Source: a virus. Taken from it: 64,000 nt of DNA. The stretch lies in UHGV virus genome UHGV-1440165. One strand, 5' to 3'. A program made the translations under genes and the position numbers. Every line of letters begins with the position of its first letter. The stretch's first letter is position 1. Of this stretch, positions 1,169-8,955 are shown one piece after another. The notes under the pieces are model-generated. The model was not told the DNA's origin. It was given only the letters and a program-made list of their open reading frames with translations, and did not search any database.

Positions 1169-1672
1169 TTGAGAGACTATATCATGATGCTGTTAATGAG
1201 TGTTCCACAGAACAAGATGACCCCTGCAACAGAGGGCAAGAATCACTTCAACATCTACAGTCGGAGCAACACCGAACTCGGTCGCTTTTTGTCGCATTTC
1301 ACTCACCATCCCACAGCCACTTACGAACATGGTGTGTTTAACTCCATGGAGGGCTACTGGTATTGGCTGAAGTACCGGGACGACAACCTGCGTCTGCTCG
1401 ACGGCTACGAGGCCAAGCAGTATGGCCAGGAGTTGGCGGCCACCCGTGTCATCGTCCTGGACCCGTCTACCGAAGAATTCAAGCGAGACATCCTGTTTGC
1501 GACCAGCATGAAACTCCAGACAATGCCAGACCTGCTGAAAATCAGATTGGCATACAGTCGACTTCCCCTGATCCATGCATACGTTCGGAACGGGAAATAC
1601 AGTTTTCAAAACTCTATGGACTTTATCATAGATCACATTAATCGTCTCCGCATACAAGGAACTTTGAAATGA
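1169..1672 (+). CDS. NADAR/YbiA-like (DUF1768-like) protein, putative ADP-ribose-processing enzyme
   Basis: FNIYSRS...LGRFLSHF...PTATYEHGVF...SMEGYWYWLKY resembles the YbiA/NADAR core (FYS..GxFSNF..PTSEHYFQAxK); true start may be an internal Met. Confidence 0.4.
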   Translation: MRDYIMMLLMSVPQNKMTPATEGKNHFNIYSRSNTELGRFLSHFTHHPTATYEHGVFNSMEGYWYWLKYRDDNLRLLDGYEAKQYGQELAATRVIVLDPSTEEFKRDILFATSMKLQTMPDLLKIRLAYSRLPLIHAYVRNGKYSFQNSMDFIIDHINRLRIQGTLK

Positions 1673-2250
1673 AATTTCTACACACTGTCGTTGGCACTTC
1701 CTATGATTGCACTGCGCACGAGCCGAACCGCTCGCCTGTGTTTGTTCTGAACAAACTGGGTGAAGAGATCTGTGAACTGTCCGATGTGTTTCACGGCATA
1801 GCCTCTTCTGAACCGTTGAATGGCGAAGTTGCTGACGTCATTATCTCTGCCATTGACCTTCTGTACGTCATGGATTTCACAGACCAGCAGCTGCATGGTT
1901 GCATGACCAAAGAAGAGTTGATTGACTCGGTGCAGACGCGTTTGGGGTTGCACAGCAATTGTTCACCTGAATATCTTGAAGAAGATTGGTTCCGACTGAT
2001 TGACCGTGATCCCCAGAAGCATCTGAACCTCATTCACCATTACCATGGTCGGATCATCCGATTGTGTAATCAGCCTTATCGCAGTGAAGATGTTCTGGAA
2101 AGACTTGTCGCCCAACTGATTACACAAGTCGCACGCATGGCATGCGGAGAAGGGGCGCTGCACAGCAATTGCACGATGGCCACCCGTATCAAAGTGGAGC
2201 AAGCATTTAACCACAAAGTTGAAAAATGGCGTATTAAATTTGGTCTATAA
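1669..2250 (+). CDS. MazG-like nucleoside triphosphate pyrophosphohydrolase (putative)
   Basis: LGEEICELSDV ... GEVADVIISAIDLL acidic helix pairs typical of MazG/HisE all-alpha NTP-PPases. Confidence 0.4.
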   Translation: MKFLHTVVGTSYDCTAHEPNRSPVFVLNKLGEEICELSDVFHGIASSEPLNGEVADVIISAIDLLYVMDFTDQQLHGCMTKEELIDSVQTRLGLHSNCSPEYLEEDWFRLIDRDPQKHLNLIHHYHGRIIRLCNQPYRSEDVLERLVAQLITQVARMACGEGALHSNCTMATRIKVEQAFNHKVEKWRIKFGL

Positions 2251-2299: not shown

Positions 2300-4210
2300 A
2301 TGTCCAACAAAATTGATATTGAACGCAAGTACAAGAAGCTCACTCACGTTGAGCATATCCTACTCCGCCCAGAGCGTCATCTGGGCAGTATTCGTTCGTC
2401 TGTGGGGACGGTCTGGGTGTATGACCCAAACAAAGACAAAGTCATCTTCCGTGACAACTTTGAGTACTCCCCCGCGCTGATCAAACAGTTTGATGAAATC
2501 ATCACCAACTGTGTCGACCACAGCAAGACCCCTGAGGGCAAATCCCTGACGGAAATCACTGTCACGGTTTCCCCTATGAACGGTCAAATCATCGTTGCTG
2601 ACAACGGGGGCATCCCTGTGGTCAAGCATGGTGTCACCAATGAGTGGCTCCCTGAGATGTTGTTTGGCTCGCTCTATGCGGGCAGCAACTTCAACGATGA
2701 AGACGAAGAGTACAACAACCAGAAGTCCGGCGGCCAGAATGGTGAAGGGGCTTCGTTGGTCAACGTGTTCTCAAAGTGGTTCCGCGTTACGACCAACGAC
2801 GGCAAGAAATCTTATGCTCAGACGTTTGAAGACAACATGAGCAAGAAGTCTAATCCGGTCATCAGCAACATGAACAGCCCTGGCACTTCCATCGCATGGA
2901 TCCCTGATTATGCTCGCCTGGGCGTCAAGGGGCTTGACCAGAACAACCTGCTCATGATCTATCGCCGCGCATTCGAAGTCGCTGCATGCAACCCGCGCCT
3001 GAAGATTGTGCTCAACGGCAAGCAAATCCGCATTGACCGCTTTGGCCATTTTGTTGATTACTTCTGTGCTGGCTCCGCTGTCGATGAAACCGGGGACTGG
3101 TCTGTTGCTGTAGCCCCTTCATCCGGTACGTTCATGCATGCTTCATACGTGAACTCAATCGCCACCCACATCGGTGGTCCGCACGTTGATTATGTGGCTG
3201 ATCAGATCGTGGCGGCGATTCGTCCTCAGCTGGTTAAGAAGTTCAAGACTGAGCTGAAGCCAGCGATGATCAAGAACCACATGTCCTTGTTCATCGCTGC
3301 CGACATCAACAACCCGCGCTTTGATAGCCAGACCAAGGAGCGCATGACGACTCCTGTCAGCCAGTTCGGTACATCCTACAAGCCCAGCGATAAGCTGATC
3401 CGCAAGGCGCTGGAGTTCGTTACAGCTGGCCTGAGCAAAGAACTGGCGGCTCTGCGTAATGACCAGGATGATGCCGAGTTTGAAAAGGCCAAGAAGGATA
3501 TCAGCAAGCGCGATTACCGTGAGATTGAGAAGTATTACCCGGCGACTGCCCGTGGCGATCGTAGCGGATGCTCCCTGCTGCTGACTGAGGGTGATAGTGC
3601 CTCCAACCCTATTCTGAACGCCCGTGACACTAAGAAGATCGGGTTGTTCCCACTTCGTGGTAAGTTCATCAACTGCCTGAACGCCCCGCGCTCAAAGGTG
3701 ATGGCGAACGAAGAGTTCAAGAACCTGTGCACAATCCACGGCGGCGCAGTACCCGGTCAGCCGCTTGACATCAGCCGCTATCCACAGACTGTTGTGGCTA
3801 CCGATGCGGACGATGACGGCATTCACATCCGTGGTCTACTGATCACCTTGTATTGCACCTACTGGCCGGAGTACGTCCGTCAGGGCAGGCTCAAGCTCCT
3901 GCGCACCCCTTACATGCGTGTGTGGTGTGGTAAGGTGATGCATGAGTTCATGAACAACGCTGAGTATGAGGAATTCCTGAAGACACCTGATGCCAAGAAG
4001 ATCACGAAGAAGAAATATCTGAAAGGTCTGGGCGGTAACAGCACTGAAGACTTCAAACGTATTCTAAACAACCTGGATGCGTATACTACGACGGTCACGC
4101 TGGACGACGGCTACAAACAGTCACTGAAGAATGGCTTCGGTGATGAGGCCGCCGATTACCGCAAAACCTGGTTTAGCGATGTTTGCCTGTTTGAAACCGA
4201 GGATGAATAA
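2300..4210 (+). CDS. 39: DNA topoisomerase II large subunit (GyrB-like ATPase/TOPRIM; T4 gp39 plus gp60-equivalent in one ORF)
   Basis: 636 aa; GHKL ATPase region (DNGGGIPV), TOPRIM region (LLLTEGDSA ... ATDADDDG); length consistent with a fused gp39+gp60. Confidence 0.9.
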   Translation: MSNKIDIERKYKKLTHVEHILLRPERHLGSIRSSVGTVWVYDPNKDKVIFRDNFEYSPALIKQFDEIITNCVDHSKTPEGKSLTEITVTVSPMNGQIIVADNGGIPVVKHGVTNEWLPEMLFGSLYAGSNFNDEDEEYNNQKSGGQNGEGASLVNVFSKWFRVTTNDGKKSYAQTFEDNMSKKSNPVISNMNSPGTSIAWIPDYARLGVKGLDQNNLLMIYRRAFEVAACNPRLKIVLNGKQIRIDRFGHFVDYFCAGSAVDETGDWSVAVAPSSGTFMHASYVNSIATHIGGPHVDYVADQIVAAIRPQLVKKFKTELKPAMIKNHMSLFIAADINNPRFDSQTKERMTTPVSQFGTSYKPSDKLIRKALEFVTAGLSKELAALRNDQDDAEFEKAKKDISKRDYREIEKYYPATARGDRSGCSLLLTEGDSASNPILNARDTKKIGLFPLRGKFINCLNAPRSKVMANEEFKNLCTIHGGAVPGQPLDISRYPQTVVATDADDDGIHIRGLLITLYCTYWPEYVRQGRLKLLRTPYMRVWCGKVMHEFMNNAEYEEFLKTPDAKKITKKKYLKGLGGNSTEDFKRILNNLDAYTTTVTLDDGYKQSLKNGFGDEAADYRKTWFSDVCLFETEDE

Positions 4211-4211
4211 G

Positions 4212-4658
4212 ATGGAATACCCGCTAACTCACCAGATACAACCAACAGCCGACACGTGTATGTCAACGTGTCTGGCGATGTTGCTTGATCGCCCGGTTGC
4301 CCAGGTTGCCGAAACTTGGCATGAAAGTTTCGCAAATTGGGAAACCACTATCGGTGATGTTCTTTGTATGGAGGGGGTTCCGTTCTTGTACGGGAAGGGA
4401 ATCAACCAAACCGCCACCATATATCATGATTATGTCTATCTTCTTTGCGTGCCAAGTCCGGCAACACCAGGAATATTGCATCAGATCATTATGGATACCC
4501 GAGGCGACAAAGTTGTCATACACGACCCACTGAAGGGTACTGGTAAAAGATACTACACCCTGGATGAAGACGACAAATCTCCTCTGGCGGTGAAACTTGA
4601 AACTTGGGTGGTGGACTACATTGTCGACCCGTATGAAGTAGGAGGTTATCGTGGGTAA
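4212..4658 (+). CDS. Hypothetical protein with C39/papain-like cysteine peptidase motif
   Basis: Q-x6-CMSTCLAML matches the C39 active-site signature (Q..C...CLxM); downstream His/Asp candidates (VVIHDP); GGAGG-like SD 9 nt upstream of ATG 4212. Confidence 0.35.
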   Translation: MEYPLTHQIQPTADTCMSTCLAMLLDRPVAQVAETWHESFANWETTIGDVLCMEGVPFLYGKGINQTATIYHDYVYLLCVPSPATPGILHQIIMDTRGDKVVIHDPLKGTGKRYYTLDEDDKSPLAVKLETWVVDYIVDPYEVGGYRG

Positions 4659-5991
4659 GATGGTTGCCAAGAGCATTACTGTAACGGACTTTGTCAACAC
4701 GGACCACAAGGAGTTCTCGGTGGTCAACAGCATCCGTCAAATCCCTCAGCTGATTGACAGCCTCAAGCCAAGCCAGCGCAAGATCCTCTTCGCGGCTCTT
4801 GAGTACAACAAGGAGGAGATTGTTGACCGCCTTGGTATGTTCGCCGCCGCCCGCACGAACTACAAGTCTGGTGGCGAGAACATGAGCGGCACTATCGTGA
4901 ACATGGCTCAGGGCTTCCCAGGTACGAACAACATCCCGTACTTCGACCGCGATGGCCAGTTTGGTTCTATCATGGGGCGCGAAGCGTCGTCGGCTCGTTA
5001 TATTTCGGTTGCTGTATCTGATGTTATCCGCAAGATCTTCCGTAAGGAGGATGAGGGTATCTTGGAATACAACTACCTTGGTGAAGAGAAACTGGAACCG
5101 AAGTTCTTCCTGCCCATCCTTCCCATGTTCCTGGTGAATGGCATTAACGGTATCGGCTCCGGTTATGCCACCGACACCCCGTGCCATTGTGTTAAGTCCG
5201 TGCTGAACGCCCTGAGAGCACTTCTCCGTGGCGATAACCCGACGGACTTAAAACCGTACTGGAACGGCTACAAAGGAGAGACAGGCTATACTGAGGAAGG
5301 AAGAGCATACAGTCGCGGCATCTTCCGTCGCGTCAATGCCACGACCCTGCATATCACCGAAGTCCCAGTGGGCTGGTTCGCCAAGACCTATGAGACCAAG
5401 GTGTTGCTGCCTCTGTATAAGGCTGGTATCCTCACTGAGTACGCCAACGACACGACTGAAGACGGCTGGGACATCACCGTTGTGTTCAAGCGGGGCGAGC
5501 TGTCTAAGCTGGATGACGATCAGGTTGAGCAGATGTTCAAGTTGTACTCTGCTAACAAGCCTGTTTGGACAGCCTGGGATGAAGACGGTGTTATCCATCG
5601 CTATTCGGGTTGGCAGGATATGCTGCTGCCGTTCTTCAACTATCGCCTTTCCCGCTATGAAGACCGCCGCCAGTACATGCTGAAGGATATGGCCGACAGG
5701 ATCAGCAAGCTGGGTGACCGGGCAGTGTTCATTGAATGGGCGACGCGTGTTGATCTCCGCCAAAAGATTGATGTGCTGAAGTCTCTGTTCATGCAGGATT
5801 ACCCAGACTTCGGTGGTGACCTTGACGAGTTGTTCAAGATGCCGCTGTCATCAATCACCCTGGATGCTCGTGAGCGGCTGCTCAAGCAGATAGAGAACCT
5901 TGAAGCACAGCACAAGGAATTAAGTAAGAAAGAGGACATTGACCTCTACAACGAAGACCTTGATGACCTTGAAAAGGCTCTTGGTCTGTAA
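4651..5991 (+). CDS. 52: DNA topoisomerase II medium subunit (GyrA-like; T4 gp52)
   Basis: SVVNSIRQIPQLIDSLKPSQRKILFAALE and GyrA-like breakage-reunion region; ORF-track start 4651 is GTG, ATG at 4660 is the likelier start. Confidence 0.9.
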   Translation: MGKMVAKSITVTDFVNTDHKEFSVVNSIRQIPQLIDSLKPSQRKILFAALEYNKEEIVDRLGMFAAARTNYKSGGENMSGTIVNMAQGFPGTNNIPYFDRDGQFGSIMGREASSARYISVAVSDVIRKIFRKEDEGILEYNYLGEEKLEPKFFLPILPMFLVNGINGIGSGYATDTPCHCVKSVLNALRALLRGDNPTDLKPYWNGYKGETGYTEEGRAYSRGIFRRVNATTLHITEVPVGWFAKTYETKVLLPLYKAGILTEYANDTTEDGWDITVVFKRGELSKLDDDQVEQMFKLYSANKPVWTAWDEDGVIHRYSGWQDMLLPFFNYRLSRYEDRRQYMLKDMADRISKLGDRAVFIEWATRVDLRQKIDVLKSLFMQDYPDFGGDLDELFKMPLSSITLDARERLLKQIENLEAQHKELSKKEDIDLYNEDLDDLEKALGL

Positions 5992-5995
5992 CACC

Positions 5996-6013
5996 GGAGG
6001 GGTTCGCCCCTCC
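5996..6013 (+). terminator. GC-rich hairpin after gp52 (weak terminator candidate)
   Basis: ggagggg-ttcg-cccctcc stem-loop; no clear T run. Confidence 0.3.
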
Positions 6014-7105: not shown

Positions 7106-7348
7106 ATGAACCCAGAATTTGAAAATCTGTTCGAGCGCTGCTTTGAACCAGGTTCTGTATCCGGTTACATGGACCGCCTTTGCACTGACATTGTAACACG
7201 CCTTGCTGCCAAGGGTATCGTTGTCAACACCATTATTCGCAATGGGAACAACTTTATCTTGCAGATAACCGATTATCGCCACCGCACAGGCATCTTTCAA
7301 GTGTCGTGTGTTGACAACAGCATCATTGAATGGAGACGTTACGCATGA
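7106..7348 (+). CDS. Hypothetical protein
   Basis: 80-aa ORF. Confidence 0.35.
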   Translation: MNPEFENLFERCFEPGSVSGYMDRLCTDIVTRLAAKGIVVNTIIRNGNNFILQITDYRHRTGIFQVSCVDNSIIEWRRYA

Positions 7349-7944
7349 CCACATATGTAATCAACGGCGGCGATTTACTGAAAGCCGCCTGTAGCTTCAA
7401 CCTGATCAACATCTTTGCCCACGGTGCCAACTGCTGGTCTACCATGGGTGCGGGTATCGCCCTACACATCGCCCACAACTTTCCAGCCCTGCGCGAAGCC
7501 GATGCCAACGATCCTCGCGGTCCAGAGCAACGCCTGGGTGGTATGTCCTATGCTTTCGACCACAGCAAAGGTGTCTGGGGCGCGAACCTCTACACTCAGT
7601 TCTATCCAGGTCCGAACGCCCGCATGCCATCTGTCATCAGTTCTGTTCAGATGTTATTCGAGCAGGTGCATGAGATTGTTGAGGCGACCGATGACGAAAC
7701 CGTCTATGTCGGTCTGCCCGCTATCGGCTGTGGCATCGGTGGTCTGAAGCTATTCAGCGTTGTCTGTCAGATCAACAAGGTGGCAGTATCCGTGTTTGAA
7801 GAAACGCGCCGCCGGGTTGTGCCTGTGTTCTACATCCGGGAGGAAGACGGGTTCGATGATGATCTGATGGATCTGTCAGATCTGATTGAAGATGGTATCA
7901 TGATTGTCGAAGATGAGCAAGAAATCATCGACGAGGAGGCGTGA
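7330..7944 (+). CDS. Macro-domain-like protein (putative ADP-ribose binding/hydrolase)
   Basis: INIFAHGANCWSTMGAGIALHIAHNF resembles the macro-domain NAAN...GGG..AI core; acidic C-terminal tail. Confidence 0.45.
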   Translation: METLRMTTYVINGGDLLKAACSFNLINIFAHGANCWSTMGAGIALHIAHNFPALREADANDPRGPEQRLGGMSYAFDHSKGVWGANLYTQFYPGPNARMPSVISSVQMLFEQVHEIVEATDDETVYVGLPAIGCGIGGLKLFSVVCQINKVAVSVFEETRRRVVPVFYIREEDGFDDDLMDLSDLIEDGIMIVEDEQEIIDEEA

Positions 7945-8336
7945 TGCGCAAACCCGTTACCGAGGAGATGCTGGCGAAAGCCGCTCTCCGCCCCAAAGAG
8001 AAGTTTGCATTCTTCCCAGTACGCTTGCATGACGGAAGCTGGATCTGGCTCCAGCCGTATGTTCGTGCTCCTATCGGCCTGTATGCAAACTGCGAGTCCG
8101 ACATTTTCGAATATGCAGCCTTTGCGAGAGGGGAAATCCCTGCTGTAGAAAGGAAGTATACTCTAAAGCAGTATCGAGTTGGCGGTGATTGGGCTGATGA
8201 TGGGGAATACTTTCCACATCGAAACTTCAGAACCTTCGACAACTCATACCAATCCGTGGATTATGCTTCTGAGTTCGGAAGGACTTCACTGCAGATCCTC
8301 TTAGAAAAGGCAGGAGAAATCGATGTACAAGTCTAA
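7941..8336 (+). CDS. Hypothetical protein
   Basis: 131-aa ORF. Confidence 0.4.
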   Translation: MMRKPVTEEMLAKAALRPKEKFAFFPVRLHDGSWIWLQPYVRAPIGLYANCESDIFEYAAFARGEIPAVERKYTLKQYRVGGDWADDGEYFPHRNFRTFDNSYQSVDYASEFGRTSLQILLEKAGEIDVQV

Positions 8337-8955
8337 CTTCCTTGCAGTGGCCGACAGTGAAACCCTGGGGCGCTGGGATGATGCTGTCATGCTGTCATGG
8401 GCGCATACCATCGCAGATCTGACCAAGCGTTATACTCTCCAACAGCTGGTCGAAGAGCGCACGACGTTCATTAAGCTAGACAGCAGAGAACAACTTGAAC
8501 TCGGTCGAGTAAAAGACCAAGGGACGGTTGAATGGTGGTTTGGCACGGGCAAACGCAATCCGTGTGATGCCGCTCGTGCTGTTAGTTTGTTCCCGAGAGA
8601 AGGTGATATCTCTGTCTTCCAGCTGGCTGACGAAATCCGCAAGGGTTGTCATCGTCTTGGGGTGGACCCGCGCTCGGTTGACTGGTGTGATCGTAACTTG
8701 TTCGACCTGCGCAAGGCTCAACACATCATTGAGGTGACGTGCAAGCAGGACTCCAACGAGCCATGGGATTACCACCACACCTTCGACATCGTGAGCTGGC
8801 TGAAGGGCGTTGGGCAGCAGGACCGCTATGCTGGCATCAAGGCATGGGAACTGGAAGGCATGGTCTATCATGATCCTCGTTATGACGCCGCGCTTGACTG
8901 GCTGCGTATTCAGAAGACCATGGAAGATCTGATGGGGCTGGAGGTGAAAGAATGA
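8323..8955 (+). CDS. dexA: DEDDh 3'-5' exonuclease (T4 DexA-like exonuclease A)
   Basis: Exo motif I AVADSETLG, VEWWFGTGKRNP and H-x4-D (HDPRYD) resemble T4 DexA (IIDFETMG ... MEWW). Confidence 0.65.
   Translation: MYKSNFLAVADSETLGRWDDAVMLSWAHTIADLTKRYTLQQLVEERTTFIKLDSREQLELGRVKDQGTVEWWFGTGKRNPCDAARAVSLFPREGDISVFQLADEIRKGCHRLGVDPRSVDWCDRNLFDLRKAQHIIEVTCKQDSNEPWDYHHTFDIVSWLKGVGQQDRYAGIKAWELEGMVYHDPRYDAALDWLRIQKTMEDLMGLEVKE

Follow-up and report, generated by a model that had tools for sequence, protein, structure and literature searches.

A probable horizontally mobile gene for a stand-alone C39-like cysteine peptidase between the topoisomerase II genes of an Ackermannviridae phage

Introduction

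C39 peptidases (Pfam family PF03412) are known as transporter-attached processors of leader peptides. The domains of PCAT1, LahT150 and ComA (PEP), situated at the N-terminus of PCAT/AMS-type ABC transporters, belong to this type; they comprise about 140 amino acids, in which an oxyanion-hole Gln is followed by the catalytic Cys, His and Asp. Free C39 peptidase domains are present in Cpe1, an effector of the type VI secretion system of Escherichia coli (PMC12136450), and in StbD-CT, a CdiA-like toxin of Citrobacter rodentium (bioRxiv 10.64898/2026.05.07.723447). These two act in the Gram-negative cytoplasm on a specific protein, and not on a leader peptide. In this study, a gene of 148 codons at positions 4212-4658 of a viral DNA sequence (genome UHGV-1440165; the whole analysed stretch of 64,000 nucleotides is referred to as the window) was analysed by computational means. 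The window derives from an Ackermannviridae phage near Agtrevirus and shares approximately 92% DNA identity with the Shigella phages Gloob and Ag3 over positions 2300-6000.

An earlier, sequence-only reading had described the gene as a papain/C39-like peptidase of unknown function, inserted between the genes for the two topoisomerase II subunits. Its location and length (ATG 4212, TAA 4656-4658) could be confirmed. The results presented here are best explained, with an estimated probability of slightly below 0.8, by a horizontally mobile accessory gene whose product is a C39-type (double-glycine) cysteine peptidase, minimal in size, free-standing and cytoplasmic.

Results

Catalytic residues and fold of the predicted peptidase

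The gene product belongs, by a full-length match (E 2.9e-52, 177 bits, residues 4-142 aligned to positions 2-142 of a profile of 145), to PHROG 4049, a family labelled as of unknown function, from which the window protein shows no difference. It is a small acidic protein of 16.6 kDa with an isoelectric point of 4.7, and no N-terminal extension precedes the predicted catalytic cysteine. The active-site motif reads Q10-x5-C16-x3-C20-L-A-M, which corrects the Q-x6-C spacing given earlier; another glutamine, Q8, is found at x7 from the cysteine. Q-x5-C is the canonical spacing of papain and C39 enzymes. In an alignment of 135 family representatives with pairwise identities of at most 50%, Q10, C16, H90, D105 and P106 were the sole invariant columns, and smaller alignments agreed with this result. 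Both Q-x5-C and H-x(10-22)-DP were present in 168 of the 174 retrieved proteins, the remainder consisting of fragments truncated at the N-terminus, two variants with Q-x4-C and two false positives of the WD40 type. On the evidence of these alignments, the match to the Q-x5-C motif is not due to chance. The ratio of non-synonymous to synonymous substitutions (dN/dS) among Agtrevirus-type orthologues was 0.08-0.17, indicating purifying selection on the peptidase gene.

An AlphaFold2 model of the window protein was built from 27 family members and was obtained with high confidence (predicted local distance difference test 90.2, predicted template modelling score 0.87). Its layout is papain-like: C16 opens a helix of residues 16-25, H90 is situated in strand 89-95 and D105 follows directly after strand 102-104. 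Foldseek searches with this model returned PCAT1 as top matches (probability 1.00). C39 domains clearly outranked deubiquitinases as structural matches, transporter C39 domains were nearer to the model than StbD-CT, and deamidases of the OspI and Cif type were found among the weak matches.

For the comparison at the level of families, the 135-sequence family profile was aligned by hhalign to 40 LahT-type PF03412 sequences. A probability of 95.1% and an E-value of 3.3e-8 over 98 columns were obtained, with Q10, C16, H90 and D105 paired to Q21, C27, H101 and D117 of LahT150. This profile comparison had been suggested as a check of the sequence-only reading, and together with the model it bears out both the C39-type active-site helix and the downstream His and Asp candidates which that reading had named. 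Alignment of the family to single fragments of Cpe1 and LahT gave probabilities of 59% and 72%, respectively, covered only the Cys helix and was not discriminating. As far as sequences are concerned, homology to C39 is detectable only from profile to profile; a single-sequence search of the PDB with the window protein gave no match, and a PADLOC scan of the protein gave no useful one.

The phage protein has the size of a C39 domain and shares with PF03412 the order of the oxyanion Gln, Cys, His and Asp at nearly equal spacing, as well as the local motifs Q-x5-C-x3-[CS]-L-A-M and H-x-[IV]-[IV]-…-DP-x-x-G. Differences could be observed as well. While C39 domains are normally transporter-linked, the phage peptidase is neither fused to nor located beside an ATP-binding cassette (ABC) transporter in the 59 loci analysed below. 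The residues H37, S82, N84 and Y115 are conserved in the phage family, and the C39 alignment shows no conservation at these positions. Moreover, the peptidase is phage-encoded here, and no canonical double-glycine leader motif, i.e. no substrate of the classical kind, was found in the open reading frames (ORFs) of at least 40 amino acids in the window. Fold and residue order are therefore those of C39, while the curated gathering score is not reached and the transporter linkage is absent.

The phage protein also shares the catalytic triad with Cpe1 and StbD-CT, and type II topoisomerases form a thematic link to them, but sequence similarity is non-significant (E 0.22). PAAR, Rhs, VgrG and CdiA delivery elements, a cytoplasm-entry domain and an adjacent immunity gene are all absent from the 148-amino-acid protein and its locus. 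With regard to delivery and immunity features, the phage protein is thus not a member of the toxin type.

Insertion between the topoisomerase genes

The view of the gene as an insertion is supported by a precise empty site. The medium-subunit gene (at least 60% identity) was found in approximately 276 Ackermannviridae records and the peptidase gene in only about 39 of these records; in the approximately 86% without it, the abutting topoisomerase genes read …TAAGATGGTTGCC…. Comparison of the junction in related phages, which had likewise been proposed earlier, revealed empty sites (…GAGGATGAATAAGATGGTTGCCAAGAGC…) with abutting subunit genes in ChubbyThor (Agtrevirus), Phi_10 (Kuttervirus) and IME250 (Taipeivirus). 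The subunit genes of Ds9CZ (Limestonevirus) abut too, with another junction sequence (…GAGAGTAATATGACC…). In the window the empty-site sequence is interrupted and reads …GAATAAGATGG/AATACCC … CGTGGGTAAGATGG/TTGCCAAGAGC…. The insert has a length of 448 bp between 8-bp direct repeats TAAGATGG; three copies of this 8-mer occur in the window, and two of them flank the insert. In a megablast search with a 3.7-kb query across the region, many close relatives covered exactly 88% of the query in two pieces, so these relatives are without just this insert. The GC content at third codon positions of the peptidase gene is 0.48, compared to 0.67 in both flanking genes, which places it in the lowest 6% of the window genes.

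The large-subunit gene ends with TAA at 4208-4210 and is followed by a single spacer nucleotide (G 4211) and the ATG at 4212. The overlap of the ORF with the large-subunit stop that had been described is thus not found; only the longest possible version of the peptidase frame, starting from a non-conserved ATG at 4131, overlaps that stop. The N-termini of homologues and the empty-site junction support ATG 4212 as the probable start. At the other end, the ORF had been said to end at the gp52-like start. This holds in so far as it overlaps a possible medium-subunit start at GTG 4651, but the peptidase TAA lies 1 nt ahead of ATG 4660. The medium-subunit start is itself ambiguous, and database records disagree on its annotation (GTG 4651 or ATG 4660): the GTG is located 5 nt after an AGGAGG sequence, while the ATG, 14 nt after this sequence, corresponds to the start at the empty sites of relatives. 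The AGGAGG presumably serves the downstream medium-subunit gene. At the empty sites, the ATG equivalent to that of the peptidase gene starts the medium-subunit gene.

Junctions in other carriers show some variation. AV101 and 4HA11 have an ATGA overlap at the left junction, and in CRW-SP2 and the Kuttervirus type (SeF6a, with a 62% identical protein) the medium-subunit gene begins with changed codons.

Other genes were found at the same junction, namely an HNH endonuclease gene in Yersinia phage CAU_YEP3 (L081 3391-3963) and a GIY-YIG endonuclease gene in Salmonella phage pSal-SNUABM-02 (L082 3381-4079). In these two phages the medium-subunit gene likewise starts with altered codons (MKTTETLSVTDF… and MKTLSVTEF…, versus MVAKSITVTDF…). 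Since HNH and GIY-YIG genes occupy the same slot, the junction can be regarded as a hot spot for mobile genes. In several ways the peptidase gene resembles the free-standing homing endonuclease genes of the seg/mob type, which lie between conserved genes in T4-like phages: the slot is that of the Ackermannviridae HNH and GIY-YIG genes, presence and absence are polymorphic among close relatives, and the downstream first codons are altered likewise in some carriers. Homing endonuclease genes encode a nuclease, however, while the phage peptidase has a papain-like fold and no nuclease domain according to Pfam, PHROGs and NCBIfam. The gene cannot therefore drive its own homing; it must spread either by general recombination or by way of breaks that other elements make. 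Both arrival and spread probably took place by recombination, perhaps at breaks made by the junction endonucleases.

Signs of exchange were also seen upstream. An HNH gene is located between the MazG-like and large-subunit genes (equivalent to approximately 2250-2300) in ChubbyThor, Ds9CZ, CAU_YEP3 and pSal-SNUABM-02 (L060 284-1114, L062 278-1108, L081 660-1490 and L082 657-1487), but not in the window or in Ag3. ChubbyThor and Ds9CZ, the two of these HNH carriers whose large subunit was translated, share a variant N-terminal ATPase stretch (…KHESGMWLPEMLFSELFAGSNFNDDD…) in this protein, which looks like a co-conversion tract. In the window, residues ~165-200 of the large subunit (…RVTTNDGKKSYAQTFEDN…NMNSP-GTSIA) match Limestonevirus Ds9CZ and not Ag3, the overall closest relative. 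This mosaicism of the large-subunit sequence suggests recombination inside the gene.

Distribution of the family

The peptidase gene is not unique to the window phage. A profile search against 1.84 billion cluster representatives (clusters at 50% identity) yielded 998 clusters with E<=1e-3, of which 656 also had E<=1e-10, and nearly all of the top 150 matches were stand-alone proteins of 118-200 amino acids. Homologues were identified by tblastn in 177 phage records. Outside the Ackermannviridae, carriers include Queuovirinae (9g, CAjan, Seurat, JenP1/2), the Vibrio phages phiVC8, VP2 and VP5, Vequintavirinae (BIS47, Hena1), the Pseudomonas phages SM1 and PMBT14, Halocynthia phage JM-2012, a jumbo Erwinia phage and many uncultured viral contigs. 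This large family is already labelled as C39 by automatic annotation in a few records, e.g. SeF6a and the UniRef entry for phage KE23, with the wordings 'Peptidase C39 domain-containing protein' and 'ABC-type bacteriocin transporter peptidase domain'. The window contains a single copy.

A search of bacterial genomes by a degenerate DNA pattern gave 17 matches, a number close to the chance estimate, of which six were real family members. One of these, a PHROG 4049 member in the nin region of a lambdoid prophage on a contig of Pseudomonas ceruminis BML-PP028 (L064 2562-3035), has the replication-initiation/helicase-loader genes on one side and ninB/ninG on the other; the family thus occurs in temperate as well as virulent phages. 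The five other real matches on bacterial contigs or contigs of metagenome-assembled genomes (MAGs) belong to Halomonas, a Leifsonia MAG, Lachnospiraceae, Pseudobacteroides and Verrucomicrobia.

Two long multi-hit proteins (P0045 and P0126) were rejected as family members and are WD40-repeat false positives. The family profile scores WD40 proteins strongly because the strand pair SLN-x-x-G-x-x-H…D resembles a WD40 blade, and this resemblance is a trap for automated family annotation. Some relatives carry additional domains. The metagenomic proteins P0132 and P0156 combine an N-terminal MazG-like domain with the C39-like domain, either as true fusions or as fused gene calls, and the N-terminus of P0132 resembles the MazG-like protein encoded two genes upstream in the window (1669-2250; 27% identity, pairwise E 5e-6). 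C-terminal additions comprise a YunG-like domain (P0088), zinc ribbons (P0078) and a conserved tail of about 50 amino acids ending in …YDLAP in the Hena1-like group.

Many family carriers are phages with modified DNA, i.e. 7-deazaguanines in Queuovirinae, 2-aminoadenine in phiVC8 and hypermodified thymidine in Ackermannviridae. A link to DNA hypermodification was not borne out: no modification gene occurs among the conserved neighbours, a lambdoid prophage is also a carrier, and the association may be a coincidence.

Gene neighbourhood

The neighbourhood was analysed by all-against-all clustering of ORFs from 59 loci, which represent 28 lineages. No neighbour was common to more than six lineages and no ABC transporter was found. 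The neighbours that are shared (HslV-like gene, holin, spanin, endolysin, terminase and NinG) reflect lineage synteny. As none extends beyond this lineage-specific synteny, we rejected the view that one of them is an operon partner or encodes the substrate. In PMBT14 and Queuovirinae the family gene is situated 0-2 kb from the lysis cassette, and elsewhere it was found among early genes, while in Ackermannviridae it belongs to the replication gene block, far from the lysis genes. The peptidase gene is an autonomous single-gene module, and its substrate is for this reason probably provided by the host cell.

The coordinates of the features at the locus, where three genes follow one another on the plus strand, are summarized in Table 1. 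Further downstream in the window, the genes at 7330-7944 and 8323-8955 match annotations in relatives as a macro-domain/ADP-ribose-binding protein and a DexA-like exonuclease, respectively.

Table 1. Features of the peptidase locus and their positions in the window.
Feature	Position	Strand	Basis
C39-like (papain-fold, clan CA) stand-alone cysteine peptidase gene, PHROG 4049 (predicted)	4212..4658	+	
Gln10 codon, predicted oxyanion-hole residue, six positions before Cys16	4239..4241	+	Invariant; aligns with LahT150 Q21
Cys16 codon, predicted nucleophile, N-terminus of helix 16-25, followed by C20-L-A-M	4257..4259	+	Invariant; aligns with LahT150 C27
His90 codon, predicted general base, strand 89-95	4479..4481	+	Invariant; aligns with LahT150 H101
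Asp105-Pro106 codons, predicted third triad residue, in the v-x-DP-x-x-G motif	4524..4529	+	Invariant; align with LahT150 D117-P118
Left direct repeat TAAGATGG, large-subunit stop and peptidase ATG	4208..4215	+	Junction comparison with ChubbyThor, Phi_10 and IME250
Right direct repeat TAAGATGG, peptidase stop and medium-subunit ATG 4660	4656..4663	+	Junction comparison
AGGAGG putative ribosome-binding site within the 3' end of the insert	4640..4645	+	Read from sequence
Topoisomerase II large subunit gene (gp39+60-like, GyrB-type ATPase and Toprim), left flank	2300..4210	+	Pfam and PHROG 543 matches
Topoisomerase II medium subunit gene (gp52-like, GyrA-type), right flank	4660..5991	+	PF00521 E 1.3e-64; PHROG 551

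Discussion

The interpretation of the window protein as a peptidase is supported by the predicted fold, by profile homology and by the catalytic residues. Several points weigh against it. The window protein has no peptidase match in Pfam or NCBIfam, and PF03412 gave none even at E<=10; just two of the 27 relatives touched this family, with a best E-value of 0.015, below the gathering score. Profile searches of PDB sequences remained non-significant (PeiR, E 0.063; 9l5u, E 0.22; LahT150, E 0.74), although all of these matches are papain-fold enzymes whose aligned parts comprise the Cys helix and the two strands with H…DP. A literature search found no experimental, biochemical or comparative study of the PHROG 4049 family. 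The papain fold with the same residues is used by deamidases, transglutaminases, acyltransferases and peptidoglycan amidases as well. Because these other chemistries rely on the same residues, peptidase activity can only be called the likeliest function. As to mobility, the pattern of carriers may be due to one gain with frequent losses just as to lateral spread.

For a mobile gene encoding a free-standing C39-type peptidase, the following course of events can be proposed. The gene would have been inserted exactly at the stop-G-start junction TAAGATGG of the topoisomerase genes, in a minority of Ackermannviridae, and would thereby have captured the upstream ribosome-binding site and the ATG that the medium-subunit gene uses at empty sites. 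As the insert brings along AGGAGG and a second TAAGATGG, the medium subunit would still be translated. Insertion at this junction and use of its signals imply co-transcription with the topoisomerase genes in the early/middle replication block, and the gene layout indicates that the peptidase gene is co-transcribed and translationally coupled. With the predicted nucleophile at residue 16, there is no room for a signal peptide. We infer catalytic activity, cleavage specificity and the nature of the substrate from these features: the product would act as a thiol endopeptidase and cut a cytoplasmic target at a specific site in early or middle infection, probably after a small-residue (Gly-Gly-like) motif, as in other C39 enzymes. 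Cpe1 and StbD-CT set a precedent for such free C39 peptidases, as their targets are cytoplasmic proteins from the same groups of hosts. Since the gene travels alone, through unrelated phages and with no conserved partner, this target is most likely a host-cell protein. It may be a takeover target or a defence protein, host GyrB/ParE being one speculative candidate.

A counter-defence role, in which the peptidase inactivates a host anti-phage protein or strips a ubiquitin-like or Gly-Gly-linked modifier from phage proteins, is a tentative proposal with perhaps one chance in a few. It is favoured by the patchy presence of the gene among near-identical phages at the strain level, by its single-gene mobility across phage families and by its location in early and nin regions, which are typical of accessory and anti-defence genes. 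This argument from distribution is generic, however. The empty PADLOC scan provides no link to any family known from defence or anti-defence, a literature search yielded no cysteine protease with which phages counter host defence in this manner, and the better structural fit of C39 domains speaks against a deubiquitinase.

According to a second proposal, a narrower form of the main reading which must be considered unlikely, the peptidase cuts the LHAGGKF ATP lid of host GyrB and ParE, so that the host chromosome is shut down and the phage topoisomerase II takes over. The co-expressed phage enzyme would then escape by virtue of its LYAGSNF motif, and host DNA topology and segregation would collapse irreversibly. 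The enterobacterial free C39 domains StbD-CT and Cpe1 do cut GyrB at G101-G102 and ParE at G97-G98, and the peptidase gene lies between, and is predicted to be expressed with, the genes for the phage topoisomerase II subunits. Motif alignment showed that the phage large subunit has LYAGSNF in place of the LHAGGKF of bacterial GyrB/ParE and is thus without the Gly-Gly and the Lys of the ATP lid. Host gyrase is also inhibited by phages without a topoisomerase, through Igy of LUZ24 and Gip of CGP3 (PMC10886550). On the other hand, the mobile-gene hot spot, with HNH and GIY-YIG genes at the same junction, explains the position more simply, and the large majority of Ackermannviridae manage without the peptidase gene. 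LYAGSNF is identical in carriers and non-carriers and is therefore not co-adapted. Most family members have no topoisomerase gene in the flanks that were retrieved, and the phages or prophages that carry them are not known to encode a topoisomerase at all. The PDB sequence matches to the toxins were non-significant, and the model stands nearer to transporter C39 domains than to StbD-CT. The case for GyrB/ParE is only circumstantial because of the hot-spot position, the unchanged LYAGSNF, the majority of family members not found beside a topoisomerase gene and the resemblance of the model to transporter C39 domains. Whatever probability this proposal and the counter-defence role leave is divided among further host targets, processing of leader peptides and papain-fold chemistries that are not proteolytic.

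Even less probable is a cell-wall amidase or isopeptidase for lysis or entry, like PeiR, CHAP or NlpC/P60, or else a deamidase, transglutaminase or acyltransferase. The vicinity of the lysis cassette in PMBT14 and Queuovirinae and the OspI- and Cif-type deamidases among the weak Foldseek matches would fit such chemistries. Against them stand the Ackermannviridae copy in the replication block, the prophage copy between replication and Nin recombination genes, the higher rank of C39 domains over amidase and deamidase folds, and the protein itself, which is small and acidic, leaves no space for a signal peptide and has no wall-binding or other Pfam domain. Maturation of a double-glycine leader, i.e. 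the classical C39 task performed without a transporter on a bacteriocin-like or signalling peptide of phage or host, agrees with PCAT1, LahT150 and ComA as closest structure and profile matches and with the activity of LahT150 excised from its transporter (title of PDB entry 6mpz), but is very improbable given that the window ORFs contain no canonical leader, that no small neighbour gene or transporter is conserved over the 28 lineages and that the carrier phages are unrelated and have little else in common.

A free-standing C39-like peptidase, minimal in size, phage-borne and moving as a single-gene cassette, would represent a new setting of a known C39 kind; the fold assignment itself is unsurprising and was partly anticipated by databases. 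Besides the transporter-attached processors and the contact-delivered antibacterial toxins cutting GyrB/ParE, which have been added since 2025, the phage family would form the third setting of C39. Its C39-like enzymes, minimal and free-standing, with invariant catalytic residues, fall into around 1,000 clusters (at 50% identity) and are carried as single-gene accessory cassettes by phages of Enterobacteria, Vibrio and Pseudomonas, virulent as well as temperate. An annotation gap is thereby disclosed, as the family is of 'unknown function' in PHROGs and invisible to Pfam. Natural near-isogenic phages with the gene (Ag3 or Gloob) and without it (ChubbyThor or MK-13) are available. The position in the topoisomerase II operon and the precedent of Cpe1 and StbD-CT suggest host GyrB/ParE as a candidate substrate. 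Identification of the target would expose a new host-takeover mechanism or a new counter-defence, and would permit annotation of the gene in candidate phages for therapy, i.e. those of Kuttervirus, Agtrevirus, Seuratvirus and others. If cutting of GyrB/ParE proved true, this would be the first phage protease known to destroy host type II topoisomerases, and about 1,000 clusters of unannotated phage proteins would be scissors for host topoisomerases, or at least for host proteins.

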